This document shows positions 2,367 to 58,234 of a stretch of DNA of 64,000 nt, piece after piece. Both the position numbers and the translations under genes were made by a program. The stretch lies in IMG/VR virus record IMGVR_UViG_3300045283_000318, positions 1,399 through 65,398 of that record; one strand, written 5' to 3'. This DNA is from a virus (Duplodnaviria; Caudoviricetes). Numbering within the stretch: the first letter of the stretch is position 1; each line of letters starts with the position of its first letter. The notes under the pieces were generated by a model, which did no database searches, was not told where the DNA came from, and saw nothing but the letters and a program-made list of their open reading frames with translations.

Positions 2367-2764
2367 TTCTCGCTCGTTCCCTCGACGCCCCGCTCCATCC
2401 GCTTCAGTGTCCGCTCATAAAGCCAGATAAGAGCCTTCTTGGCGTGAAGGAGCGCCATCTGGTTCTCGTTGCAAGGATAAGGGCCTTCCTGGAAACATTC
2501 GAGGCGGTCGATGACGATCGCCAGCAGGACTTCCTGGGTGATGCCGTTGACGCCCTGTTCGGCGATCGGGCCACACTGGAAAATGATCGTGGCGGCGTTG
2601 TCGTCCTCCGGATCGGGGCAAGCAAGCGCGGCCACATTGCGATGCATCTGCATGCCGGAAATCGCATAGACGTGGCTCGCTCCACCGGCGCCGGGCTCAT
2701 CGAGCGCTTGGATATTCAGCTTGTCGTTGAGCGGGTTGGCCTTGTGGGTGTCGATGGTTCTCAT
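2363..2764 (-). CDS. tad1: Tad1-like (Thoeris anti-defence) nucleotide-signal sponge protein
   Basis: FQCGPIAEQGVNGITQEVLLAIVIDRLECFQEGPYPCNENQMAL...WLYERTLKRMERGVEGT follows the Tad1 family pattern; ATG at 2764 overlaps upstream stop. Confidence 0.8.
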   Translation of the reverse strand: MRTIDTHKANPLNDKLNIQALDEPGAGGASHVYAISGMQMHRNVAALACPDPEDDNAATIIFQCGPIAEQGVNGITQEVLLAIVIDRLECFQEGPYPCNENQMALLHAKKALIWLYERTLKRMERGVEGTSEK

Positions 2765-3038: not shown

Positions 3039-3833
3039 CTACGGCAGCTCGGGCATTTCCTTGAGGTTTCTCAAAAACTGAGCTTCGGAAGGAGTGTAGT
3101 CAGGGCCCGGCGGTTTAGGTTTACGTTTCTTGTAGGGCTTTTTCGCCGGTCCGCGAGGACGTCCGCGATTTATCGCCGATCCGAGGGGAAGCCCGATCGC
3201 CTGCGCCAGCGTCCAGCCTAGCTTCAGGCGCTGGTACACTATGTTGCGTGACAGGCCAAGCTCTTCGACCAAATCGATCAGGAGCATCTTCTTGCCGTTG
3301 TAGGTCACGAGCACCGAGTTGCGCTTGTTTCGCCCTTGATCCTTACGGCTTATCCACCGACAATTCGTCGGCTCGTAGTTACCATTTACATTGTCTCGCT
3401 CGATCGTGAACTTCGAGTCCGGCTTGCGGCCCATGTCGAGCATGAAGTTCTTGAAGTCGTTCCAGCGCTCGCAGATCGTAATACCGCGGCCACCATAAAT
3501 TGGATACTTCTTGCTACTCGGGTCGAGACACCTGGCGCGCATGTTTATCCAGGATTGGTATTCTGATTTGTACTCGGTGGTGAGCGGAACGGGGCGACCT
3601 TGTTTGTGGATGGGGGCTGAGCATCTTGTTTTACGGCCTTCGCGCAGTTTATCGCGGCCGACGACGATCTCCGCGCCGCACGAGCAGCGGCATAGCCACG
3701 TAATGCAACGCCCTTTCCGGCCAGCACGTGAGAGCACAGTCAGCTCGCCGAACTTCCGACCCTCGAGCCGAATGATGCGACCTGCATGATATCGTTCAAC
3801 TTTTTTTGTGAAAGCCCTCGATCTTACGGTCAT
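3039..3833 (-). CDS. HNH-like homing endonuclease
   Basis: WLCRCSCG; SWINMRARC...YGGRGITICERW...TIERDNVNGNYEPTNCRW...QGRN. Confidence 0.85.
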   Translation of the reverse strand: MTVRSRAFTKKVERYHAGRIIRLEGRKFGELTVLSRAGRKGRCITWLCRCSCGAEIVVGRDKLREGRKTRCSAPIHKQGRPVPLTTEYKSEYQSWINMRARCLDPSSKKYPIYGGRGITICERWNDFKNFMLDMGRKPDSKFTIERDNVNGNYEPTNCRWISRKDQGRNKRNSVLVTYNGKKMLLIDLVEELGLSRNIVYQRLKLGWTLAQAIGLPLGSAINRGRPRGPAKKPYKKRKPKPPGPDYTPSEAQFLRNLKEMPELP

Positions 3834-5684: not shown

Positions 5685-6020
5685 ATGGCCAAATACTTCA
5701 ATGTTTCTCATGGTTTGCGCGGCTGCTACATGCCCGACGGCGATCCGTACATCGTCATGGTGCGCACGCGTCGCGAGCTCAAGGAAGTGATCGCCGGCGA
5801 AGCAAACAACATGGGGGACATGGTCGGATTGACCAAAGCGGCAATCGCGCGTCTCGCCGCCAATGCCTGGCACGAAGCGCAGAAGCCGAATCCGGCCTAT
5901 CTGCCTCACTGCCTGCCGTGCCATGATCGCAGCGTTAAGATCGCCAAGTATTCCTATGGCATCTTCGTGTCCGTTGCGAGCCGCTCCGAGTACCTGGAAC
6001 GCCAAGAGGCGGGGGAATAG
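5685..6020 (+). CDS. Early hypothetical protein
   Basis: AAGGGG RBS; first gene after promoter. Confidence 0.75.
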   Translation: MAKYFNVSHGLRGCYMPDGDPYIVMVRTRRELKEVIAGEANNMGDMVGLTKAAIARLAANAWHEAQKPNPAYLPHCLPCHDRSVKIAKYSYGIFVSVASRSEYLERQEAGE

Positions 6021-6093
6021 CCTTCCCCCACCCAAAAACGAACGCTACCCCCTTTAAAACCAATCCTAGCCCCTACCCGGAAGGAACCGACCG

Positions 6094-6360
6094 ATGCGTT
6101 TCCGCTGCGATACCTCAGAAGCTCAGCCCGACGGCGCCGTTATCTGGTCCACGAAATGGATCGGAGGACCGACACTGGCCAAAATCGAGAATTGCCGCTT
6201 GGCCAATCTCGCTGGCGACATGCGCCGCACCGTCACTGTGACCGGGCATCCCGACACTTACTTTTCGATCCCGGCCGAATGTTCCATCGCTGGCGCCAAG
6301 GTGCGCGGCTATGTGACCTCGGAGGATAACAATCTGGTATTCCGCCAAACTTATTACTGA
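6094..6360 (+). CDS. Early hypothetical protein
   Basis: AAGGA RBS; DTYFSIPA motif. Confidence 0.7.
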   Translation: MRFRCDTSEAQPDGAVIWSTKWIGGPTLAKIENCRLANLAGDMRRTVTVTGHPDTYFSIPAECSIAGAKVRGYVTSEDNNLVFRQTYY

Positions 6361-6541
6361 CCTGCCCAAACCGCCCCTTGCGCCCGGCACCGAAAGGTTA
6401 CCGGGCTCGACGAGGTGCTCGACAGCTACCCGGACATTGACCAGGCTGAATTTGAACAGCTCTGCGAACGCGGCACCATCTCCGGCCGCTTGGTCCGTGG
6501 TGACAATGGCCGCTGGTACTTTTACCTTGGAATGTAGCGTC

Positions 6542-17084: not shown

Positions 17085-17389
17085 CGCCAGAGGGGTGGGA
17101 AAAGAAGGACGTGGACGCGTGGCTGAAAAAACTAGACCCCGACCTTGTCTGGCATCACAAGACGATTACCATGGGCTTCGGCGCGTCCGGGGCACCTGAC
17201 TACGTGCTGTGCCTCAAGGGAGCGATGTGGGGGCTGGAGATCAAAAGGCCAGGGAAGTCGGCAACAGTGATCCAGCAAAAACGAATGGACGCGATCCGTA
17301 AGGCCGGCGGGCACGCCGTTGCCGGTACCGCGGAGGTCGTGATCATGGAATTGACGCGATGGTTGGCGGCGAGAGGGATTGCGGCGTGA
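17081..17389 (+). CDS. VRR-NUC nuclease
   Basis: TPEG..K; GFGASGAPDY; LEIKRPG..T..Q. Confidence 0.85.
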   Translation: MTPEGWEKKDVDAWLKKLDPDLVWHHKTITMGFGASGAPDYVLCLKGAMWGLEIKRPGKSATVIQQKRMDAIRKAGGHAVAGTAEVVIMELTRWLAARGIAA

Positions 17390-17955
17390 CCGCGGTAACG
17401 CCTGAACAAAAAGTCAGAGCAGCTAAACGCGCTATGGCGCATTACTATGCGCACAAAGGAACACGCTACAGCATCACGCAAGAGCGTCTGAAGGAATTTT
17501 TGCATTATAATCCGAGCACCGGAGTGTTGAAATGGATCAAGCAAAAAGGGTCTAGAAAGCCAGGAGATATAGTAGCTACTGCTAACAACAGCGGTTACAT
17601 CCAATTGCGTTTTGATGGGTGCATCTATTTAGCGCAAAAAATAATTTATTTTTATATGACTGGCGAGTGGCCGCCACTAGATATAGATCACAAAAATAGA
17701 AACGGCTCAAGCAATCGTTGGAAAAATTTACGACTAGCAACTAAACCGCAAAACTTAGGAAACACGGGTAAGTGGAAAAACAATACTTCGGGATTTAAAG
17801 GTGTTTGTCGCGTGCACAACAGCAAACGCTTTCTTTGGCGCGCCGAAATATGCGTCGATGGAGTGCGATACCGTTTAGGGCACTTCGAAACGGCTAAAGC
17901 AGCGAGTAAAGCTTACAATAAAAAGGCGAAAGAGCTTCGCGGTGAATTCGCATGA
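17386..17955 (+). CDS. HNH-AP2 homing endonuclease
   Basis: YNPSTG; IDHKNRNGSSNRWKNLRLAT; NTSGFKGV..WRAEI..LGHF; AT-rich. Confidence 0.9.
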   Translation: MTAVTPEQKVRAAKRAMAHYYAHKGTRYSITQERLKEFLHYNPSTGVLKWIKQKGSRKPGDIVATANNSGYIQLRFDGCIYLAQKIIYFYMTGEWPPLDIDHKNRNGSSNRWKNLRLATKPQNLGNTGKWKNNTSGFKGVCRVHNSKRFLWRAEICVDGVRYRLGHFETAKAASKAYNKKAKELRGEFA

Positions 17956-22351: not shown

Positions 22352-22542
22352 CAAACACCCTCGATAAGATCGCTCAGGCCATGATCGATTTCGATACGGA
22401 GCAGGGGCATATCGGCGTGGACGCGCCGGTGTGGGGGCGTTACCAGGGACTGGCTGGGGTCGCGCTGGAGGAAATCAGGAAGCGACTTGCCGGTACGGCT
22501 TGTGAGCTTGCTATCGAGTCCGTGCTCAAGGGGGAGTCGTAG
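22348..22542 (+). CDS. Hypothetical protein
   Basis: Coupled ORF. Confidence 0.55.
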   Translation: MTNTLDKIAQAMIDFDTEQGHIGVDAPVWGRYQGLAGVALEEIRKRLAGTACELAIESVLKGES

Positions 22543-22570
22543 GTACTTGTTTTACGGCAAGTTAAAGCAC

Positions 22571-22810
22571 ATGGCGAAGCAGGCAGCAGTTTTGTTCCGT
22601 AGAAAGGTCTACGTGGTCGGGCCGAACCACAAAGACGCGATCGACGCAGCGTTCGCCAAGTTCACCGAGCACCAGGCGCATCGCGTGACACTTCGAATCA
22701 TGGACGGCAAGGAAGACATCGTTTTTGGGTTCGCTTACATTGATGGGACGGACTTCAAGCCGTCCGACATGCAATCGGCGCGAAAGCGCATGTACGGATT
22801 TAATCCTTAA
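22571..22810 (+). CDS. Hypothetical protein
   Basis: ORF in rightward string. Confidence 0.55.
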   Translation: MAKQAAVLFRRKVYVVGPNHKDAIDAAFAKFTEHQAHRVTLRIMDGKEDIVFGFAYIDGTDFKPSDMQSARKRMYGFNP

Positions 22811-22831
22811 CGCGTCGAAAAGGGAATCACA

Positions 22832-23005
22832 ATGCTTGTACATATTTACGATCGCACGCCAGGCCAGCATACGAAGATAGGCGAGGCAAAGATGGATGCC
22901 ATTCCTCGCGAAGGCGATACCTGCTTAGTCAATGACGAAACCAAGATCGTTCACTCGGTGATGTGGGATCTGACGAAAATGTCCGTCAGTCTCCTTCTTA
23001 GGTAG
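22832..23005 (+). CDS. Hypothetical protein (57 aa)
   Basis: Read by eye; AAGGGA RBS; IPREGDT motif. Confidence 0.55.
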   Translation: MLVHIYDRTPGQHTKIGEAKMDAIPREGDTCLVNDETKIVHSVMWDLTKMSVSLLLR

Positions 23006-23014
23006 CAACAGAAC

Positions 23015-23272
23015 ATGGCCAAACAAACCGAAGTCCAGAAGCTGAAAGCTGAGATTGCGGTGCTCCGTGATCTGCTAGAGACAGCCTATCGGGAAGCGGA
23101 CAAGGCTCGCGCCGAAAGCGAAAAGGCTGACGACGAAGCTATCGAGCTGAAGCACGAAATGCTGAAGCTTCGTGCACTTGGAACACAAGACGGTGTGGAT
23201 TTGGTCTGGCACTGGAAGCGGAAATACGACGCTCTCGCAGCTCGCAGTCATCAACAGTTAAAGGAACCATAG
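23015..23272 (+). CDS. Coiled-coil hypothetical protein
   Basis: ORF in string. Confidence 0.55.
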   Translation: MAKQTEVQKLKAEIAVLRDLLETAYREADKARAESEKADDEAIELKHEMLKLRALGTQDGVDLVWHWKRKYDALAARSHQQLKEP

Positions 23273-28466: not shown

Positions 28467-28736
28467 CTACTGCCCTACCAACCAATTTGTTCCGTTGCAT
28501 CGGACCATAACGGACACCGCGCCTCCACCGACCACGGCGACACCTAGCGCAGGCGTGAGCGAGTTCGTCACGGTATAGATGACATTGGTCAACGCCGCGG
28601 TACATGGCGGAAGCCCTGCCGCCGTGGTCGACGGTGATCCGAATGTCGTCGGCGACGTGACTGGTGCGGTCATGCTCTGTGCGAACGCAACAGCCGACGT
28701 GACCAACAAAATAAATGCTGCGATAATGTTTCTCAT
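28467..28736 (-). CDS. Small structural/secreted-type protein
   Basis: LPPCTAA...GGG...VRCNGTNW. Confidence 0.65.
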   Translation of the reverse strand: MRNIIAAFILLVTSAVAFAQSMTAPVTSPTTFGSPSTTAAGLPPCTAALTNVIYTVTNSLTPALGVAVVGGGAVSVMVRCNGTNWLVGQ

Positions 28737-29171
28737 TGGAAGTCTGCTTCAATCGCACCTGTCAACACGCCCGTGGTGTAGGTGTAAGGTGTCGCAGCCG
28801 ACGTGATCAAAATCTGGATACCTGCCGAGTAGTTAATGTACATCGGAATGCGGGTCAACGAGCAACCGCGCGCCGTCGTGTCCATGAAGCAGAAGTCCAG
28901 CACGTTGGCGGCCGTTAGCGCACCAGTTCCGGGCGTGGCGGCTCCGTTGTAGGCAACACAGAAACCAGCTGCGGCGCCCGAAATCGCGGTACAATTGAAA
29001 TTGTAGAGGTTGCCGGCCGATGCTTTGACGCTCGACAGTGGCGGTGCAAGGAGCCCAGTGCAACGGCGGGCCAGTATCAACGAGGCAGTACAAATCCACC
29101 TCGGCTTGCGCGGAACCGATCCAGGGCAGGAGCAGCGTTAGACCAAGCAGGAATTTCGCGAGTTTTGTCAT
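28733..29171 (-). pseudogene. Frameshifted structural gene (two frames joined near 29040)
   Basis: Signal-peptide N-terminus in one frame, VKASAGNLY... domain in the +1 frame; outer ends coupled to neighbours. Confidence 0.6.
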
Positions 29172-49321: not shown

Positions 49322-49881
49322 ACCGGTGACCTGTAATTCGGGTTATCGGTGATCTGTCGCGGCAGCGGCGCTTGGCCAACGGGCGGCAACAGGCGCTGGA
49401 GCCGGTTACGCTCGCGCAGGCCTGCGTAAGCCACATCGCCCTGCGGGACATTGTGCGCGGCCGCAGCGCGGGCCATGGCATCAGATGGCGCCGTGTTGAA
49501 CCCGGTCGGCAGGCCGGCCGCCTGCATCGCATCCATGCGCTGGGTGACCTCGTTGCGAACCTCGATCGCTGAGAACTGGGCATCGTTGCGGTCGTTGAGG
49601 TTGGTGATCTTGAGGTTCGACATGTCCTCGACGCTGGTGCCGGCCATTACCGCAGCCATTTCCGCGCGCTGCACCGAGCCGTCCATAATGTCGCGCGCGA
49701 CCTTATCGTTGGCCTTGGTCTTGAACGACAGGATGTTCGGCATCACCACGTCGTCATCGTCGCGACGGTTGTTGATGTCGGCACCGCATTCCGGAATCTG
49801 ACAAAAATCTGGCCACCCCACGGAAACATCGTATTTGAACTTCCCCCGACAAACAGGGCATTTAAGAATTACGGGCATCAC
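49318..49881 (-). CDS. Zn-ribbon hypothetical protein
   Basis: CPVC...CQIPEC. Confidence 0.65.
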   Translation of the reverse strand: MMPVILKCPVCRGKFKYDVSVGWPDFCQIPECGADINNRRDDDDVVMPNILSFKTKANDKVARDIMDGSVQRAEMAAVMAGTSVEDMSNLKITNLNDRNDAQFSAIEVRNEVTQRMDAMQAAGLPTGFNTAPSDAMARAAAAHNVPQGDVAYAGLRERNRLQRLLPPVGQAPLPRQITDNPNYRSPV

Positions 49882-50365
49882 GCACGGCCTTTCTCCTAGC
49901 CGATTTTATCCTACACATGGTCGCTGAACGGCAAGCTCGACACTTTCTGTGCATGGTATCACGATACGAAAACCAATACGTGTTCTTTTCGTTGAACTCG
50001 TGACCGTTTTTACAATGCGTTTTCACCTTGTTTTTCGGAATGTGACTTTCGCCGCGAAAATTGTTTTCGGTTTGAGTAACCGGTTCGAGGTGATCTGGAT
50101 TCACGCAGCATCTAACTCGGCAAAGATGATCTAAATGCAACCCATTTGGAATCGAACCCTTAAATAGCTCGTACGAAATCCGATGCGCCCATCCGTGTCT
50201 TCCGTCAGGAGTATGAAAACGTCCGTAACCTTCTTTGCTAACGTGCGCTTCCCACAGCCAACATCCCGAGTTGGGCTCAGGACTTACATGCCGCATAAAG
50301 CGATCCTCGTACGGAATCACTTTGTACTGCCTGCCGCGAAAAAACTTCCCCTCTAAAACTTCCAT
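49862..50365 (-). CDS. HNH homing endonuclease
   Basis: NSGCWLW..GYG..AHRISY..LDHLCRVRCCVNPDHLEPVT..EN; THCKNGH finger. Confidence 0.9.
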   Translation of the reverse strand: MEVLEGKFFRGRQYKVIPYEDRFMRHVSPEPNSGCWLWEAHVSKEGYGRFHTPDGRHGWAHRISYELFKGSIPNGLHLDHLCRVRCCVNPDHLEPVTQTENNFRGESHIPKNKVKTHCKNGHEFNEKNTYWFSYRDTMHRKCRACRSATMCRIKSARRKAVRDARNS

Positions 50366-50472
50366 CAGCGATCCCATGCTTTTGCGGCGAGCACAAACAG
50401 GCTGCCGACAGCCAGAATAGCGACAATGGTGCCGACGATCTCGACGACGTTTCGAACAGTTTCGTGCGTCAC
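50365..50472 (-). CDS. 35-aa TM peptide
   Basis: Read by eye; overlaps terminase stop and HNH start. Confidence 0.5.
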   Translation of the reverse strand: MTHETVRNVVEIVGTIVAILAVGSLFVLAAKAWDR

Positions 50473-52379
50473 CGTCCGTACCTCCACGCGTTCTTCATCG
50501 CCAGCTGCTGAGCCTGAAGCCGATTCTGCTTCTTCCCGCTCATGAACGAGGCTACCATGTTCTGGTTGAAGAGAGCCGTGGTGTCAATAATGGAAGCCTG
50601 CTTCTTGGCGGCCTCGGCCGTCCGCGTCCGCTTCTGGACGATCAGGTTGCGCCGGATCTTGGTGCTCCAGTAGTGAATGGCCATGGCCATCGCGATCACC
50701 CGGTCATCCTTGAGGTTGCCCTCGGCGGCGATCGAGGAACCGTCCCGCGTCACCGTCTTCATCTCCTCGATCAGATCGTGCGAACGAACGTGAAGCTGGA
50801 CATTGGCAAAGTAACCGCGCAACCCCTCCAGGATCGACTCCTTATTCTGCGGCGAGGTCTTCCAGTGCCAAGCGCTGCCGCTACCGGTCATCGAGTCAGG
50901 CCGCGCGTAGATGAACGATTTGACATTCCGGAAAATGTTCTTCAGTCCCTGATCCTCGAGCGGCGCGTAGCCGTTCTCGATCTGGAACTTCAACGTCTTG
51001 AGTTCGGCCAGCACATCACTGCCAGGCCCGTTGATCTCCAGGATGTAGTGCACTTCGCTCAGCGGCTCGTTACCGTACCAGGCCATGATGCCGGCTACGA
51101 CGTGAGCGAAGTGGCGGGTGGTGATCATGGGGTAGGCGTATTCGGCGACCTGGTCGACGCCATCGGCGTAGCAGCGCAGCACCTGAATCGAGGAGCGGTC
51201 GTTGAGCTCGTTCTCGCCATAAGCCGGATCGACGCCTAGCACATAGACGGCCTCCGAGGTCGGCGCCTCCCACACCTTGAGCTCGATGTTGCGAGTGGTC
51301 TCGGCCTTGTAAACCTTCATGTCGGAAAATTCGGTACCGCCCAAAAACATGTACGGCGAAAATTTTCGCGAGACATACTTGTCAGTTTGAACCTTCAGCG
51401 TCTCGCCGGCGAAGAACGTACTGCCGGTCTGCTGGAACGCTTCCTCCTCGTCCCAGGGCTGCTCCTGCTTCTGAAACTGATCGGCCTCGAAGCCAGCATC
51501 GACCTCTTCCTCGTCGACCGCCGATGGGTCCATGGCGCGCCGGTACCACGCCAGCTGCTCCTGAGTAACGCTGAAGTCGTACTTCTCCTTGACGAGGTCG
51601 ATCTTGGCCTGCTCCTCGCGGGTCGGGGGCTGGGCGCCGTAGAATTCCCAGTCGCGATCGCCGCGCTCTATCTTGTGGCTGTCCTTGGCCCACCAGCCGA
51701 TAAAGACGCAAATACAATGGCGCACATCCTTGCGCGCGATCTTCCACATCTCGTTCCACATGTTGTAGCCGCGAGCGGTGGACTCGTAGATGTAAAGTCG
51801 GTTCGGATTAATATCCGACAGCGACTCCCGGAATGAGATCAGGCCTTCCTGGTTGTCGTAGGAACAAAGCTCGGACAGGTGCGCCAGCGAGACGCCAGCC
51901 GACCGGCCGAGAGTGCCCGAGGTCTTGGTCTTCTTGATGCCGGCCGACTTGAACAGGATCTTGGACGAGTTCGACAGCGTCAGGCCGTCGCGGTTATCCT
52001 TGGCGATCCCGGGGAATTTAAGGCGGTCGGGCAGCGCCTTGATGATGGTGACGAGCTCGTCCCGAGCAAGATTCTTGTTCTCGTTGGTATCGAAAACAAG
52101 GGCTCCGGTAAGGCCGCGGTGGACGCCCAGGAAGAAGGCACACAAGGCCCGAATGATTGTGGTGATGCCGAGCTGGCGAGATTTTAGACAGTAATAGTCG
52201 TGAACATCGATTTCCAATCCATCAAAAATCGCAGTGATAAATACCCGTTGTCCGTACATCAAATATTTGCCAAGTATAATCGGCTCACCATGGTCTTTGG
52301 AATTTATTTCGCAGGAATTCAAATACGTATAGAACGCCGCCTCAAAAGCCAATCTTTTCTCTCGTGACCAACCCGTCAT
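50469..52379 (-). CDS. terL: Terminase large subunit
   Basis: LKSRQLGITT, HLSE, ESTARG, LGVDPAYG, DDRVIA. Confidence 0.93.
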   Translation of the reverse strand: MTGWSREKRLAFEAAFYTYLNSCEINSKDHGEPIILGKYLMYGQRVFITAIFDGLEIDVHDYYCLKSRQLGITTIIRALCAFFLGVHRGLTGALVFDTNENKNLARDELVTIIKALPDRLKFPGIAKDNRDGLTLSNSSKILFKSAGIKKTKTSGTLGRSAGVSLAHLSELCSYDNQEGLISFRESLSDINPNRLYIYESTARGYNMWNEMWKIARKDVRHCICVFIGWWAKDSHKIERGDRDWEFYGAQPPTREEQAKIDLVKEKYDFSVTQEQLAWYRRAMDPSAVDEEEVDAGFEADQFQKQEQPWDEEEAFQQTGSTFFAGETLKVQTDKYVSRKFSPYMFLGGTEFSDMKVYKAETTRNIELKVWEAPTSEAVYVLGVDPAYGENELNDRSSIQVLRCYADGVDQVAEYAYPMITTRHFAHVVAGIMAWYGNEPLSEVHYILEINGPGSDVLAELKTLKFQIENGYAPLEDQGLKNIFRNVKSFIYARPDSMTGSGSAWHWKTSPQNKESILEGLRGYFANVQLHVRSHDLIEEMKTVTRDGSSIAAEGNLKDDRVIAMAMAIHYWSTKIRRNLIVQKRTRTAEAAKKQASIIDTTALFNQNMVASFMSGKKQNRLQAQQLAMKNAWRYGR

Positions 52380-52391
52380 GCACGCACCAAA

Positions 52392-52416
52392 CAAAAAAAG
52401 CCCGCCGAAGCGAGCC
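52392..52416 (-). terminator. Intrinsic terminator closing the repeat locus
   Basis: GCTCGC-TTCG-GCGGGC-T7 on the minus strand. Confidence 0.85.
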
Positions 52417-52420
52417 TTCT

Positions 52421-52506
52421 ACCACACCTTGCCCAGCCGAGCCAATGCCCAACCGAAGCTTACCTAGCCTGACCTTGCCACACCCCGCCTAGGCATGCCT
52501 TACCCT
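52421..52506 (-). repeat. NN-GGY pentamer array C (17 units, one extra nt), candidate guide RNA
   Basis: 15 of 17 units end in GGY. Confidence 0.85.
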
Positions 52507-52518
52507 AGCGGATTCAAG

Positions 52519-53121
52519 CTACTCGAACTTCACGATACCAAACCTGCCAAACGTCGGCCGAAAATCGCCCATGCCGATCAATCGGCCAGCAGATTCGATT
52601 GTTTCCCGAAGCGTATTCGTATCCACGTACTCGGGCAAGACGCACATCAAATCAAACGTTGCTTCCCAGCCCGCGCGCATCGCCGGCCGTGTCCGGTTGA
52701 TTCCGTTGCGTTGAATTGTAACCCGACGCTTGTCGAGATAATCCCAAGTACCGACGCCGAGCGTCGCCAAGGGAGTCGTCACAACGATCGCCGCCTTGAA
52801 CAAATCCATCGCTGACTTTCGCGGCGACCTGGGATCTTGTCGAAACTTCGCCGCGTTAACTACACTGCCTCGAAGATACTCGCCAGGAATCGCAAGTTGA
52901 CCGGCGTCAGTTCGATAAACGTAAGTCTCAACGTCATCAGTTTTCTTCGCCTTGGAGTTCTTCGCCGCAGCGGCCTTCTCATCCACCGCTTCGGCGTTCC
53001 AGCGATGAAATAGAAAATCTGCCGATCCGCGTACAGTCACCGCAACGTGATACGGTTGACTGTGCGAAATGGTTTCGTTGCCGCCGTCGGTCGGCTCTTT
53101 CAATTGAACAATTTTGCTCAT
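52519..53121 (-). CDS. Cas7/RAMP-like RNA-binding protein
   Basis: VTVRGSADFLFH strand, LAIPGEYLRGSV helix, C-terminal Gly loop AGRLIGMGDFRPTFGRF. Confidence 0.75.
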   Translation of the reverse strand: MSKIVQLKEPTDGGNETISHSQPYHVAVTVRGSADFLFHRWNAEAVDEKAAAAKNSKAKKTDDVETYVYRTDAGQLAIPGEYLRGSVVNAAKFRQDPRSPRKSAMDLFKAAIVVTTPLATLGVGTWDYLDKRRVTIQRNGINRTRPAMRAGWEATFDLMCVLPEYVDTNTLRETIESAGRLIGMGDFRPTFGRFGIVKFE

Positions 53122-53124
53122 AAA

Positions 53125-53179
53125 ACCTCACCTAACCAGTGCGTGCCATACACCACCACGGCGTATCTTGCCTCGCCTG
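53125..53179 (-). repeat. NN-GGY pentamer array B (11 units)
   Basis: 7 of 11 units GGY in strict 5-nt register; last unit GAGGT serves as RBS. Confidence 0.75.
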
Positions 53180-53183
53180 TGTC

Positions 53184-53390
53184 TTACTTTAAATACACTC
53201 TGGGGTCGATGTCAAGAAAATAAGACGTTAAAATCAAAAAAGTTTCGGCGCTGACCGGCAACCCTCGATCAGCGCGAGACACAGTAGCGTGACTGATGTC
53301 GTATTTTTTTCCTAAGTCACGCACAGACAGCGAGCAAGCTTGTCGATGCTCGTAAACATCAGCCCCGAACTCTTTCCACTTTATGGTCAT
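53184..53390 (-). CDS. XRE/Cro-like HTH protein
   Basis: LSVRDLGKKYDISHATVSRADRG. Confidence 0.75.
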   Translation of the reverse strand: MTIKWKEFGADVYEHRQACSLSVRDLGKKYDISHATVSRADRGLPVSAETFLILTSYFLDIDPRVYLK

Positions 53391-53395
53391 TATAA

Positions 53396-53490
53396 ACCTT
53401 ACCCGACCTGGCCTTACCTTGTCTTAGAATGCCACACCATGCCTAACTAAACCGCAACCTGCCGGACCTAGCACTGCCGCACCCGACCAT
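53396..53490 (-). repeat. NN-GGY pentamer array A (19 units)
   Basis: 14 of 19 units GGY; all 19 end in a pyrimidine; strict register. Confidence 0.85.
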
Positions 53491-53496
53491 GGGAAC

Positions 53497-53525
53497 TTTA
53501 TAAGGCCGAGCCGGTTACCCGTCCA
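53497..53525 (-). promoter_or_regulatory. Promoter driving the repeat locus
   Basis: TGGACG-17-TATAAA; expected +1 near 53490, the first base of array A. Confidence 0.65.
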
Positions 53526-53541
53526 GCCCCCGGAGGCTTCC

Positions 53542-53754
53542 ATGCCCGACCTCATCATTCAAATCATTATCATCATGCTGATCGCCGGCTTCGTCTACTG
53601 GTGCTGGCTGAAGCTGTCGCCCCTGATGCCCATCGCCGAGCCGTTCGCTTCCGTCATCAACGTGCTGGTCGTGATCCTGATCGCGGCAATCGTGCTATTC
53701 TACGCCATCATCCCGCTGCTGCACCAGTTGGGCCATATGAGCCTAGTGCGCTAA
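53542..53754 (+). CDS. Two-TM membrane protein
   Basis: GGAGG RBS; hydrophobic hairpin. Confidence 0.75.
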   Translation: MPDLIIQIIIIMLIAGFVYWCWLKLSPLMPIAEPFASVINVLVVILIAAIVLFYAIIPLLHQLGHMSLVR

Positions 53755-54302
53755 CAACTCGTTAAGGCAGATCGGAGGATGAAGCAGGCGATGTGCCGAC
53801 CAGTCCCCTTGCCGGCCGTACTGTCTTCTGTTGCAATCCACTTCACGTCACCGAGATTGCGAATGTCGGCTGTCTCGCCGAAGATAGCCTTGACCAACAT
53901 CAGCAGCCATTTGTCGACAGGGTAGACGAGGACCACCGTCTTTCCCTTCTGCCATTCCTCAATCGCTTTTCGAACCCACGCGGTCGGACCTTTCTTCTTG
54001 CCCTGATGCATGATGGATCCGAAGGGCGGGTTTACGTAGCTGACTGTTCCCCACTCACAGGTGAGACCGTCGAAGCCTTCCGGCAGCGGGAAAGGGCATG
54101 GGTCGAAGTTGAACCCGAACTCGGCATGAAGCCGCGCGTAAAGGTCTGGCGGGGTGAGCCAATAATGCTTCCCGTCGTCGCCGTTGCCCTTGTGAAACTT
54201 GTTCTCGGACGGGGCGAGAAGCGATTGGTGTAGATCGGTCAACTTCTGTTTCCTTAAGTGATGTGCAACGCTGTCAGCCGACGAGCTTCTCGCCCTTGGC
54301 AT
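53751..54302 (-). CDS. Phage DNA N6-adenine methyltransferase (start uncertain)
   Basis: WLTP, FNFDPCP, DGL..EW, YVNPPF. Confidence 0.85.
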   Translation of the reverse strand: MPRARSSSADSVAHHLRKQKLTDLHQSLLAPSENKFHKGNGDDGKHYWLTPPDLYARLHAEFGFNFDPCPFPLPEGFDGLTCEWGTVSYVNPPFGSIMHQGKKKGPTAWVRKAIEEWQKGKTVVLVYPVDKWLLMLVKAIFGETADIRNLGDVKWIATEDSTAGKGTGRHIACFILRSALTSC

Positions 54303-56160: not shown

Positions 56161-57554
56161 CCAACCTTCTCCATCAAAGCTTCGACGATCCGCTCGAACA
56201 CCGGCTCCCAGCGCATATCGTCGGATTGCTGGAAGAACTTCGCTTTCGGAGTCCAGATACGTTGCGCGTCAGTGCCGTTACAACCTCCGCGGTAGTCCCT
56301 CCCGCACCACGAGTATGGGACCCAGTGCTCGTGACCGCCCATCGCGCAGATGTGCCCAAGCGCCGACTCGACCGTAATCACGAGGTCAAGATGCGGCAAC
56401 ACCGAATAGGTGTCGGCGATGCAACGAAGGTAACCACTGAGATCTTTGACCAGCGGGGCGAAGCCCCACAAGTTCAAGTCGGACTTTTTGGCATCACACT
56501 GCAGGGCGTAGAGTTGAACACCGGGCACCCGGTACAATTCCATGAAGTGATGAATCGGAATATTTCGGTGCTTATCGATGTCGTTCAACGGGCTACCAGC
56601 CCAGGCAATGCCAATGTGGAATTTGCGATCAGGAACCTTCCACGAGGTCGGCATCGGGTCTCGCGGCACATCGATGTTCGGCGCGTTCTTGATCTCGTCG
56701 TCGGTCAGTCCCAGTGCATAGGGCAAAGAGACAAAGGTCGACCACGCGTCCGCATCTCCCGGAAAGTTCGAAGGCGAGGGGAGGAAGTTGATATTGGGGA
56801 GGTGCCGGAAAGCATGTTCAAAGGTGCGACGCAATTCGGCTTGAGTACACATATGAATATAACGACAGCGTTTAGCAGCAGCCTCAACAAAACGTGCGTA
56901 TGACAGCGTGTCACCGAGGCCCTGATCCGCGACAAGAAACAGTGTCTTGCCTTTTTCACCTTCCCATTTTTTATAGGGGTAAAGCAAAAAATTCGGCAGC
57001 CGTGCCGCAAACCTTGATTCAAAGCGCTTCAGTCCCGCAGCGAACTGACCGTCAAACAACAAGGCGAACGCCAGTTGAAACTCAGCAATCGGGTAGCCCT
57101 GGCCGTCATTTGGATCGGCGAGTTCAAAGCACTTCAGCGCGTAACCAACAGCTTTTTTGGTATCACCGAGTATCTGCCAAATCATGCTACAATGCATATT
57201 TGGTAGTGACGACTTCGGCTCCAAAGTCATTGCCTCATGCAACAAAGGCAACGCCTCTTTGTGATTCCCGATTTTCATCAATTCCCATGCTAAATTCGTA
57301 AGCGTTCTATGACGCTCGCCAGAAGTCTGCTCACACTCAAGCGCACGACGAAACAGTGCGACAGACGCATGCGGACGAATCAAATCCGAAGCAGTGCACC
57401 CGTTAACGTAAAAAGCCTGCCCATAAGTCGGGTCGGCGTAGCATGCACTTGCGAATTGCTGATAAGCGTGGTCCTGATTCGTCGCATGCGATTTATCGCG
57501 AGCGGCCTGCTCGCCTTGCGCCATGAGTTTGATTGCGCCTTCGCGATTACCCAC
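56157..57554 (-). CDS. TPR-repeat plus GT-B (GT9-like) glycosyltransferase
   Basis: TPR helices; DQGLGD...ARF; IGIAWAGS; LDLVITVESALGH. Confidence 0.85.
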   Translation of the reverse strand: MGNREGAIKLMAQGEQAARDKSHATNQDHAYQQFASACYADPTYGQAFYVNGCTASDLIRPHASVALFRRALECEQTSGERHRTLTNLAWELMKIGNHKEALPLLHEAMTLEPKSSLPNMHCSMIWQILGDTKKAVGYALKCFELADPNDGQGYPIAEFQLAFALLFDGQFAAGLKRFESRFAARLPNFLLYPYKKWEGEKGKTLFLVADQGLGDTLSYARFVEAAAKRCRYIHMCTQAELRRTFEHAFRHLPNINFLPSPSNFPGDADAWSTFVSLPYALGLTDDEIKNAPNIDVPRDPMPTSWKVPDRKFHIGIAWAGSPLNDIDKHRNIPIHHFMELYRVPGVQLYALQCDAKKSDLNLWGFAPLVKDLSGYLRCIADTYSVLPHLDLVITVESALGHICAMGGHEHWVPYSWCGRDYRGGCNGTDAQRIWTPKAKFFQQSDDMRWEPVFERIVEALMEKVG

Positions 57555-58041
57555 GTAACTTCCTCTTGTAGTTTCTGCGGGAGTTCGCTTGCGAACACGC
57601 CCTACACAGTCGAATCTTCCCGCGGAAAACTATGTTGCCTTCTTGCATAAAATGCAAGCCCGCCCTGCAGTGTGTTCGCGTAGCAGCCAGCAACCGGTTA
57701 TTTTCTGCGGCATTGCCGCGCCTGCAATTCTCGCGTTGAGTAACTGGCTCGAGGTGATGCGGATTCACGCAACATCGCATTCGACACTTGTGGTCCAAGA
57801 CCATTCCCTCTGGAATCGGCCCTATGAAGTGCTTGTAAGCTTCACGATGCACCGACACCATATTCAGTTTTTTCTTACCATCCACCATTCTCGTCATGCC
57901 CATTTTGGCATACCCGAGCTTAGTTATATTTCCCATCCATATGTAACAGCCGGTGTTCGGTTCTGGAAAAGCAAAATGGTTATATCGGTCTTCGAAAGAA
58001 GAACTAATTCCTCCTTCTTTAAATTTTCTACGCAACAACAT
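57547..58041 (-). CDS. HNH homing endonuclease
   Basis: NTGCYIW..VHREAY..LDHKCRMRCCVNPHHLEPVT..EN. Confidence 0.9.
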   Translation of the reverse strand: MLLRRKFKEGGISSSFEDRYNHFAFPEPNTGCYIWMGNITKLGYAKMGMTRMVDGKKKLNMVSVHREAYKHFIGPIPEGMVLDHKCRMRCCVNPHHLEPVTQRENCRRGNAAENNRLLAATRTHCRAGLHFMQEGNIVFRGKIRLCRACSQANSRRNYKRKLRG

Positions 58042-58234
58042 TTGCCTTCCTGAACTCCTGCGCCAAACAAATGCCGTGGCCTCGCCCGACAAGCCTGCCC
58101 GTCTTGGGATCGGTGCCACCGAATGCCCAGTCGTGAACCCATTCCGAAGTGTCTTTACGAAATCGAATCGGATCGCCGGTCGCACACCGCGGGCACAACT
58201 CCTTGCACTTGGCTTCGAACTCTTCCGGAGACAT
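58028..58234 (-). CDS. Small Zn-binding protein
   Basis: CPRC...EWVH...C. Confidence 0.6.
   Translation of the reverse strand: MSPEEFEAKCKELCPRCATGDPIRFRKDTSEWVHDWAFGGTDPKTGRLVGRGHGICLAQEFRKANVVA

Follow-up and report, generated by a model that had tools for sequence, protein, structure and literature searches.

The window analysed here is a stretch of 64,000 nucleotides from the IMG/VR virus record IMGVR_UViG_3300045283_000318 (positions 1,399 to 65,398 of that record). It contains a compact minus-strand locus spanning 52395-53525, in which a gene for a 68-amino-acid (aa) helix-turn-helix (HTH) protein and another for a 200-aa protein are interleaved with arrays of the pentamer NNGGY (Table 1); we compare it with the recently published systems named VIPR, for Viral Interference Programmable Repeat, which are built on the protein Vipr and on repeat-containing vrRNAs. 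The source record is 65,398 bases long, has a GC content of 58.7%, comes from a soil metagenome and is 100% complete by CheckV. Read on the minus strand from 54000 to 51900, the locus runs from a promoter-like site through array A, the HTH open reading frame (ORF), array B, the 200-aa ORF (vipr) and arrays C1 and C2 to a terminator; both ORFs and the reading order are as an initial annotation of this DNA, made from the letters alone, had described them. Our evidence concerns the protein family and its predicted fold, the residues that contact GGY, the anatomy of the arrays, and the conservation of arrays beside relatives of the vipr gene.

Together, the four in-register blocks hold 36 strict NNGGY units out of 47 on the vipr strand, a figure given in the initial annotation and reproduced exactly when we recounted by in-register splitting. 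The accompanying statement that nearly all non-coding DNA of the locus lies in such units was generous: the arrays do make up the majority, 235 of 321 non-coding bases (73%), and the remainder is promoter, leader and terminator. When we ran a strict array caller (at least six GGY in eight in-register units) over both strands of the 64-kb window it returned A and C1 only, and it returned no array in any of 20 block-shuffled windows. At 5 of 8 the relaxed caller picked out B and C2 in addition, and the rest of the window contributed two weak calls of background level (5/7 and 5/8); shuffled windows averaged 0.55 calls at this threshold. Tandem Repeats Finder, at a minimum score of 30, produced no rows on the locus because the variable NN positions keep identity low; its blank is not evidence against the arrays. 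C1 and C2 are offset by a single base, and this shift may mark the boundary between two vrRNAs, by analogy with the ‘staggered arrays’ named in the legend of Fig. S18 of the discovery preprint (bioRxiv 10.64898/2026.04.26.720920).

Table 1 Features of the candidate VIPR locus in the window, and structured leaders beside vipr in seven relatives
Feature	Position	Strand	Remarks
Putative array A promoter, TGGACG-17-TATAAA (or TGGACG-19-TAAAGT)	53497..53525	-	Putative, read from the sequence; weak consensus match
Array A (vrRNA)	53490..53396	-	19 pentamers, 14 strict NNGGY; stops 5 nt short of the HTH start codon
68-aa XRE-type HTH gene	53184..53390	-	Accessory, this sub-clade only
Promoter-like site, TTGACA-18-TAAAGT	53186..53215	-	In the HTH gene, at its 3' end; array B follows closely
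Array B (vrRNA)	53179..53125	-	11 pentamers, 7 strict NNGGY; stops 3 nt short of the vipr ATG
vipr, 200-aa minimal RAMP (Cas7-like)	52519..53121	-	Homology, predicted fold, GGY-contact residues
Array C1 (vrRNA)	52506..52447	-	12 pentamers, 10 strict NNGGY
Array C2 (vrRNA)	52445..52421	-	5 pentamers, 5 strict; one extra base separates C1 from C2
Intrinsic terminator, possibly also 3' tail of the last vrRNA	52395..52420	-	UUCG loop, T run
Structured leader, L003	~2500-2650		
Structured leader, L004	2740-2885		
Structured leader, L006	2850-2995		
Structured leader, L007	2850-2995		
Structured leader, L014	2741-2886		
Structured leader, L017	2745-2890		
Structured leader, L032	2857-3000		

The 200-aa protein was recognised by neither Pfam nor PADLOC, and PHROGs placed it in phrog_4652 (E 2.2e-16), a family of unknown function. 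Searched as a single sequence against all PDB chains with phmmer, it had one match, 36pp, the ‘SUSP1 Vipr protein’ (E 1.4e-5), confined to the C-terminal 70 residues. A family profile built from the window protein and 57 relatives (58 members) matched the same chain at E 1.9e-17, with profile positions 33-206 aligned to chain residues 5-189; beyond it, the profile picked up a single ribosomal protein in the PDB (E 0.23), which is noise. In the genome of phage SUSP1 (NC_028808.2), the profile found one gene (E 1.5e-19), annotated as a hypothetical protein at 28474-29061 and flanked by a 449-nt intergenic stretch and, on the other side and past one more gene, by a 531-nt intergenic stretch. Window and SUSP1 proteins are only 25% identical, over 187 aa (BLASTP E 3e-11).

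An AlphaFold model computed on the 58-member alignment had a predicted local distance difference test score (pLDDT) of 93.4 and a predicted template-modelling score (pTM) of 0.85. Foldseek compared this model with the PDB and gave 149 matches at E<=0.001, with E down to 6e-7, the top rows listed being all Csm3, type VII Cas7 and Cas7-11; VIA-align placed Csm3 (6ae2_B) first (Z 11.3, root-mean-square deviation 3.0, 143 residues aligned), and its best 40 rows were all CRISPR RAMP entries, so the RAMP/Cas7 fold proposed in the initial annotation is borne out by the model. The features of a minimal RAMP are present as a G-loop, GMGDFRPTFGRF, and a beta-hairpin at 128-148 that bears R145, the thumb being judged from secondary structure and alignment. 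In SUSP1 Vipr the residues reported to hold GGY include H17, R138, D177, W178, R179, E71 and M72 (bioRxiv 10.64898/2026.04.26.720927); with SUSP1 Vipr added to the family alignment for residue mapping, H39, E81, Y82, R145, I182, M184, D186, F187 and R188 of the window protein aligned to the GGY-holding residues. SUSP1 D177 and R138, whose alanine mutants lose silencing (bioRxiv 10.64898/2026.04.26.720927), map to D186 and R145, both identical residues, while W178 and M72 are substituted by F187 and Y82. Across the family, R145, D186 and R188 are conserved in 57, 52 and 56 of the 58 members, respectively. On this homology the 200-aa protein is Vipr, related in sequence to SUSP1 Vipr and with a predicted fold like that of Csm3/Cas7. 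In metagenomes the Vipr family is much larger than the set first reported: of 6969 candidates, 6792 clusters at 90% identity passed E<=0.001, as did 1262 representatives at 50% identity, compared with 2,664 unique NR Vipr sequences in the discovery preprint (bioRxiv 10.64898/2026.04.26.720920).

VIPR systems have been described in three bioRxiv preprints dated April to October 2026. Vipr protomers polymerise on the vrRNA, one per repeat, and the resulting filament sequesters GGY and displays the NN bases (bioRxiv 10.64898/2026.04.26.720920, 10.64898/2026.04.26.720927), each GGY being held jointly by two adjacent protomers (bioRxiv 10.64898/2026.04.26.720927). The target is double-stranded DNA, matched with every third base skipped, and its transcription is repressed (bioRxiv 10.64898/2026.04.26.720920); in nature, the sequences targeted belong to satellites, prophages and other VIPR loci (bioRxiv 10.64898/2026.04.26.720920, 10.64898/2026.04.26.720927). 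The initial annotation had imagined a nuclease-free filament whose subunits each hold one GGY and display NN and which would bind DNA or repress it so as to counter competing elements, and had named VIPR as a family to which the locus might belong. The name and the family are indeed published, and the window protein is homologous to SUSP1 Vipr; the imagined mode of action would fit the published mechanism. Its filament agrees with that mechanism except that two adjacent protomers share each GGY, and its target was DNA, as guessed, the discovery preprint adding that this is double-stranded and that one base is skipped per unit.

In the same preprint, arrays are recognised as at least four tandem YNNGG/GGYNN units flanking vipr on its strand (bioRxiv 10.64898/2026.04.26.720920); the blocks of the window, of 19, 11, 12 and 5 units, flank vipr on its strand in this way. 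Judged by its sequence, the locus is a new instance of the published VIPR systems, not a new class, and we hold with high confidence that the window carries the VIPR locus of a complete 65-kb soil phage.

Conservation of the arrays beside relatives of the gene is the second line of evidence. Among IMG/VR loci encoding a Vipr 52-84% identical to that of the window (L001-L035), all 35 have same-strand NNGGY arrays beside vipr, so the 5-nt GGY periodicity anticipated in the initial annotation for the flanks of homologues is found in every one. These arrays lie immediately downstream in all cases, beginning ~3-120 nt past the vipr stop codon, and in many cases upstream as well; each relative has one to eight, and across all 35 loci there was a single array call on the opposite strand. 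As a positive control, the caller was run on SUSP1, where it returned a single array upstream of vipr and, past the neighbouring gene, three downstream; small-RNA sequencing of SUSP1 found one upstream and three downstream vrRNAs (bioRxiv 10.64898/2026.04.26.720920). Arrays also accompany vipr in all five loci found in bacterial metagenome-assembled genomes (MAGs) at 55-65% identity, which are labelled Steroidobacteraceae, Planctomycetales, Stenomitos (two copies) and one further bacterium. Pooling 92 arrays with 1873 units from 30 distinct loci, we measured 1.98 and 1.99 bits at the two N positions and 3.94 of 4 bits for the dinucleotide, with G, G and C/T at 95%, 84% and 95% in the same units; the GGY figures are conditioned on the caller, and the NN entropy is not. 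Some of the IMG/VR relatives have conserved spacers between arrays or hairpin tails, which vary among them, and their vipr gene is often near the packaging module.

One metagenome contig, L050, has the same HTH gene, upstream of an array and vipr, the same promoter hexamers, and a Vipr N-terminus that is 75% identical; its array between HTH and vipr occupies the same place as array B and has a different NN series.

Compared with the type II system of SUSP1, the window locus has the same kind of protein, a single-RRM RAMP of ~200 aa with a GDxRPxFGRF G-loop and the GGY-contact residues kept. Both are phage-encoded, with GGY/NN arrays on the gene strand upstream and downstream of vipr, no cas genes and no self-targets. 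Apart from the low identity of the two Vipr proteins, the differences lie around the gene: SUSP1 has vap1 (146 aa) downstream of vipr, whereas the window has an unrelated 68-aa XRE-type HTH gene upstream, and each SUSP1 vrRNA ends in a conserved tail of ~40 nt, whereas A and B of the window abut start codons. Among cultured or named phages, only DSL-LC04 (OR003939.1; L037) has a record with a close relative, a Vipr 57% identical to that of the window at 22429-23046. The gene is annotated there as a ‘helix-turn-helix transcriptional regulator’, and three NNGGY arrays (17/20, 9/11 and 9/13 units) occupy the unannotated gap of ~320 nt upstream of it; by its sequence, this GenBank entry looks like a misannotated VIPR locus.

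The likeness to CRISPR effectors is structural. In the model, window Vipr shares with Csm3, Cmr4, type VII Cas7 and Cas7-11 an RRM core, a thumb hairpin and a glycine-rich loop, and by analogy it would, like the CRISPR Cas7 RAMPs, occupy a guide RNA at fixed steps, with one subunit for each. It differs from these proteins in sequence (~10-16% identity) and in its step, which is 6 nt with 5 paired in the CRISPR RAMPs and 5 nt with 2 informative bases in VIPR. The window system also differs from CRISPR-Cas in being phage-borne and without a repeat-spacer array, Cas1/2, Cas10 or Cas5/6: none of 63 window ORFs matched a core Cas model at E<=1e-5, the single match being to a DEDDh exonuclease model, and the locus showed no direct-repeat array. 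The locus, with no further cas genes and no repeat-spacer array, is thus outside CRISPR-Cas proper, and the absence of Cas1/2 and of a CRISPR array noted in the initial annotation stands.

We turned to the signals for expression of the locus. The cUUCGg terminator named in the initial annotation was recovered by a promoter and terminator scan, with 11 pairs, a UUCG loop and a T run. Over 52000-54000, the same hairpin drives an Rfam match to rsmX (20.4 bits, with the gathering score at 56; E 0.5), which we rejected. The promoter named initially, TGGACG-17-TATAAA, is present as a sequence, but it matches the consensus at only 9 of 12 positions, its -10 hexamer lacks T at the last position, and it was not reported by the scan, which found a better site at 53215..53186. 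That site, TTGACA-18-TAAAGT, matches at 10 of 12 positions and was the sole promoter-like site reported at the locus. One site was found where 1.2 were expected by chance; the case for it rests on its position and on the conservation of its hexamers in L050, not on the count. Going by these sequences, a separate promoter within the HTH gene probably serves array B and vipr. The local wiring that we infer is likely one of two transcription units: promoter A would drive array A and the HTH gene, and the nested promoter would drive B, vipr, C1 and C2 as far as the terminator.

The HTH protein itself gave weak matches to HTH_31 and HTH_3 (E 0.011 and 0.042), under the Pfam cut-off. Its homologues form six clusters, all of 68 aa and 62-75% identical, two of which have precomputed HTH_3/HTH_31 matches and two of which are named XRE-family regulators by their source. 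In the aligned family, six of eight members match HTH_31 and HTH_3 at E<=0.01, and a profile of the eight, run on the PDB, matched DNA-binding proteins of small size, at best with E 1.2e-4. Two homologues are on contigs of 2577 and 2682 bases, the same sizes as the contigs of two close Vipr relatives, which hints at co-occurrence; the more distant relatives L049 and L051 have neither vipr nor arrays nearby. The vaps of VIPR types II, VI and VII are predicted DNA binders (bioRxiv 10.64898/2026.04.26.720920), and the 68-aa protein is most likely, from its sequence, a DNA-binding regulator or helper, in a vap-like sense, of a narrow sub-clade.

How the locus would work, we infer from the published SUSP1 and P. 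fulva systems, by analogy with which its transcription, ribonucleoprotein formation, DNA binding and target would follow. Vipr would polymerise along RNAs of the NNGGY arrays, one protomer per pentamer, with GGY held and NN displayed; the filament would bind double-stranded DNA that matches the NN series with one base skipped per unit, and, once bound, would silence transcription at the target. A competing phage, prophage or satellite would be a likely target.

We searched for such targets with the rule of a 1-nt skip. In the 65-kb genome of the phage itself, the best matches were 22/38 for A, 15/22 for B and 16/24 for C1, no better than those of shuffled guides; the best self-target, at 58%, equalled theirs, and a control with a 3-nt skip recovered each array itself. 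This is consistent with natural VIPR systems, for which the discovery preprint reports no self-targets (bioRxiv 10.64898/2026.04.26.720920). Scans of collections used exact patterns with 10-unit seeds, whereas the preprint used an NN match of at least 80%. Six such seeds gave two matches in IMG/VR, about the chance level, and four of them (A units 1-10 and 5-14, C1 units 1-10 and 3-12) gave none. The match to A units 10-19 we rejected as chance-like: its site is AT-rich with stops in all frames nearby, and 6 of the 18 remaining positions match. B units 1-10 matched once, at 20 of 22 positions. The site falls within an ORF for 231 aa, where the bases skipped are the third ones of codons, and the provirus that carries it is 42 kb long and, like the window phage, has 58% GC. 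We found no family for this ORF, and guides A, C1 and C2 gave nothing above shuffled guides in the same provirus; the guide B match may be a lead only and is not distinguishable from chance. In ~266 kb of relatives' loci, all guides together gave nothing above shuffled guides.

Several observations weigh against this reading of the locus. Degenerate units account for 5 of 19 in array A and 4 of 11 in array B, and the folding energy of these two arrays is no better than that of shuffles (z 0.10 and -0.41, respectively). A hairpin 3' end is present only at array C, where it doubles as the terminator; A and B run straight into start codons and, unlike SUSP1 vrRNAs, have no structured 3' tail. The HTH gene, which the initial annotation had counted as part of the system, is present in the window but is not a general component: it was found beside vipr in none of the 35 IMG/VR relatives, and its product has no similarity to that of the SUSP1 gene beside vipr (vap1 by position). 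The seeds run against IMG/VR yielded no convincing target, a search of sequencing runs listed no RNA run that contains the window stretch and one DNA run that does, which may be the source sample, and from the accessible text the locus could not be placed in any one of the published types I-VII. The array architectures of published VIPR systems vary between types (bioRxiv 10.64898/2026.04.26.720920).

Of the other explanations, the one that survives best, though we think it unlikely, is that A and B are mainly cis-acting 5' leaders, on which Vipr binding would occlude the ribosome-binding site, and that only C1 and C2 are true guides. A and B end 5 nt and 3 nt, respectively, before an ATG, and their last units, AAGGT in A and GAGGT in B, are the sole Shine-Dalgarno-like sequences before the HTH and vipr starts; neither array has a hairpin tail, both show more degeneracy than C, and a promoter-like site lies directly upstream of B. 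Another sub-clade has a leader at the same place that pairs with the Shine-Dalgarno sequence: in seven relatives, vipr or the array upstream of it is directly preceded by a conserved structured element of ~125 nt, which the window lacks (Table 1). Its predicted fold is a three-way junction of 32 pairs, 8 of them with compensatory changes among only six sequences, and its outer stem pairs with a GGAG ribosome-binding sequence; its equivalent place suggests that vipr translation is commonly controlled from the leader. The element had no Rfam match at E<=1 and, to judge from sequence and predicted fold, may serve VIPR loci either in control, as a riboswitch-like or protein-binding element, or in processing. 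Hammerhead ribozymes are reported for some VIPR types; Rfam matched none in 20 relatives searched at the gathering score or in 6 relatives searched at E<=1.

It counts against A and B being leaders rather than guides that the SUSP1 vrRNA upstream of vipr is a proven guide (bioRxiv 10.64898/2026.04.26.720920). In most relatives, 18-60 nt separate the end of the upstream array from the ATG and a distinct Shine-Dalgarno sequence is present, showing that the overlap is not conserved, and the NN series of the upstream array differ between the window and L050 in a guide-like manner. Leader and guide roles are also not mutually exclusive. A circuit combining them in this sub-clade is conceivable but improbable: the arrays would be both guides and 5' leaders, Vipr assembly would throttle translation of Vipr itself and of the HTH protein, and the XRE-type HTH protein would gate the internal promoter. 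If this were true, protein dosage would be coupled to guide loading, an autoregulatory circuit that the accessible published text does not describe for VIPR.

A VIPR remnant, inactive or in decay and with arrays that have ceased to function, is a very unlikely reading of the locus. Such decay would account for the 11 of 47 units that depart from GGY, for the searches that found no target and for the absence of an RNA run containing the stretch, but vipr has an intact, full-length ORF in which the key residues are all kept, and promoter and terminator signals are in place. Fractions of strict units in the relatives are similar to those of the window (17/25 and 31/44, for example), and internal degeneracy of vrRNAs is described as frequent (bioRxiv 10.64898/2026.04.26.720920). 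Least probable of all, with hardly any weight in our judgement, is a stand-alone Cas7-like RNA-binding protein with another function, such as type III-like RNA targeting, for which the repeats would be a binding platform: the nearest solved folds besides Vipr are indeed the RNA-targeting Csm3, Cmr4 and Cas7-11, but the homology to SUSP1 Vipr is whole-length with the GGY contacts retained, the GGY/NN pentamer code is identical to that of characterised systems, and no Cas10 or other type III partner occurs among the 63 ORFs scanned.

Read as VIPR, the locus adds a well-resolved example, carried by a complete soil phage, to a family whose literature goes back only months. It leaves the VIPR concept unchanged and illustrates the freedom of its architecture, with an XRE-type partner upstream, a promoter nested within that partner, and arrays adjoining start codons. 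Classification or engineering of VIPR systems can draw on the leader variants and on the residue mapping (W178 to F, M72 to Y).

Some relatives have features of their own. The arrays of L012 (2214-2952 and 3620-4054) are nearly uninterrupted, with 111/116 and 30/30 units upstream and 79/87 downstream, and those of L008 (3654-4285) are also long, with 51/64 and 52/62 units. Published vrRNAs have 9-16 repeats (bioRxiv 10.64898/2026.04.26.720920); the very long arrays of L012 and L008 far exceed this number, so that either processing must yield many guides from them or their use must be a different one. A cyanobacterial contig from a Stenomitos MAG (JAHHIE010000002.1) has two copies of Vipr at a distance of ~100 kb (L040 and L042), and their identical array positions relative to vipr suggest a duplicated element. 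A cluster of nine tRNA genes is found at 5826-6528 in the 96-kb relative L014, ~2.2 kb downstream of its VIPR arrays.

In the window, the locus is bordered upstream by a Dam-like methyltransferase gene at 53751-54302 (Pfam Dam, E 1.9e-6) and, past the terminator, by a terminase-like ORF of 641 aa with matches to PHROG terminases. A strongly hydrophobic 70-aa ORF on the plus strand (53542-53754), with a GGAGG ribosome-binding site and two membrane spans predicted by eye, is divergent from array A and shares 4 nt with the end of the Dam-like gene; to drive this ORF, a promoter would need to sit within or beyond array A, on the opposite strand. This ORF had no significant family match in Pfam or PHROGs. 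Genes of the phage include those for a DNA polymerase, a primase-helicase, a serine-recombinase-like protein, capsid, tail and terminase. There are also four HNH endonuclease genes of homing type (3039-3833, 17359-17955, 49862-50377 and 57547-58185), scattered along the phage, and the terminase and portal region has one of the four as its immediate neighbour.

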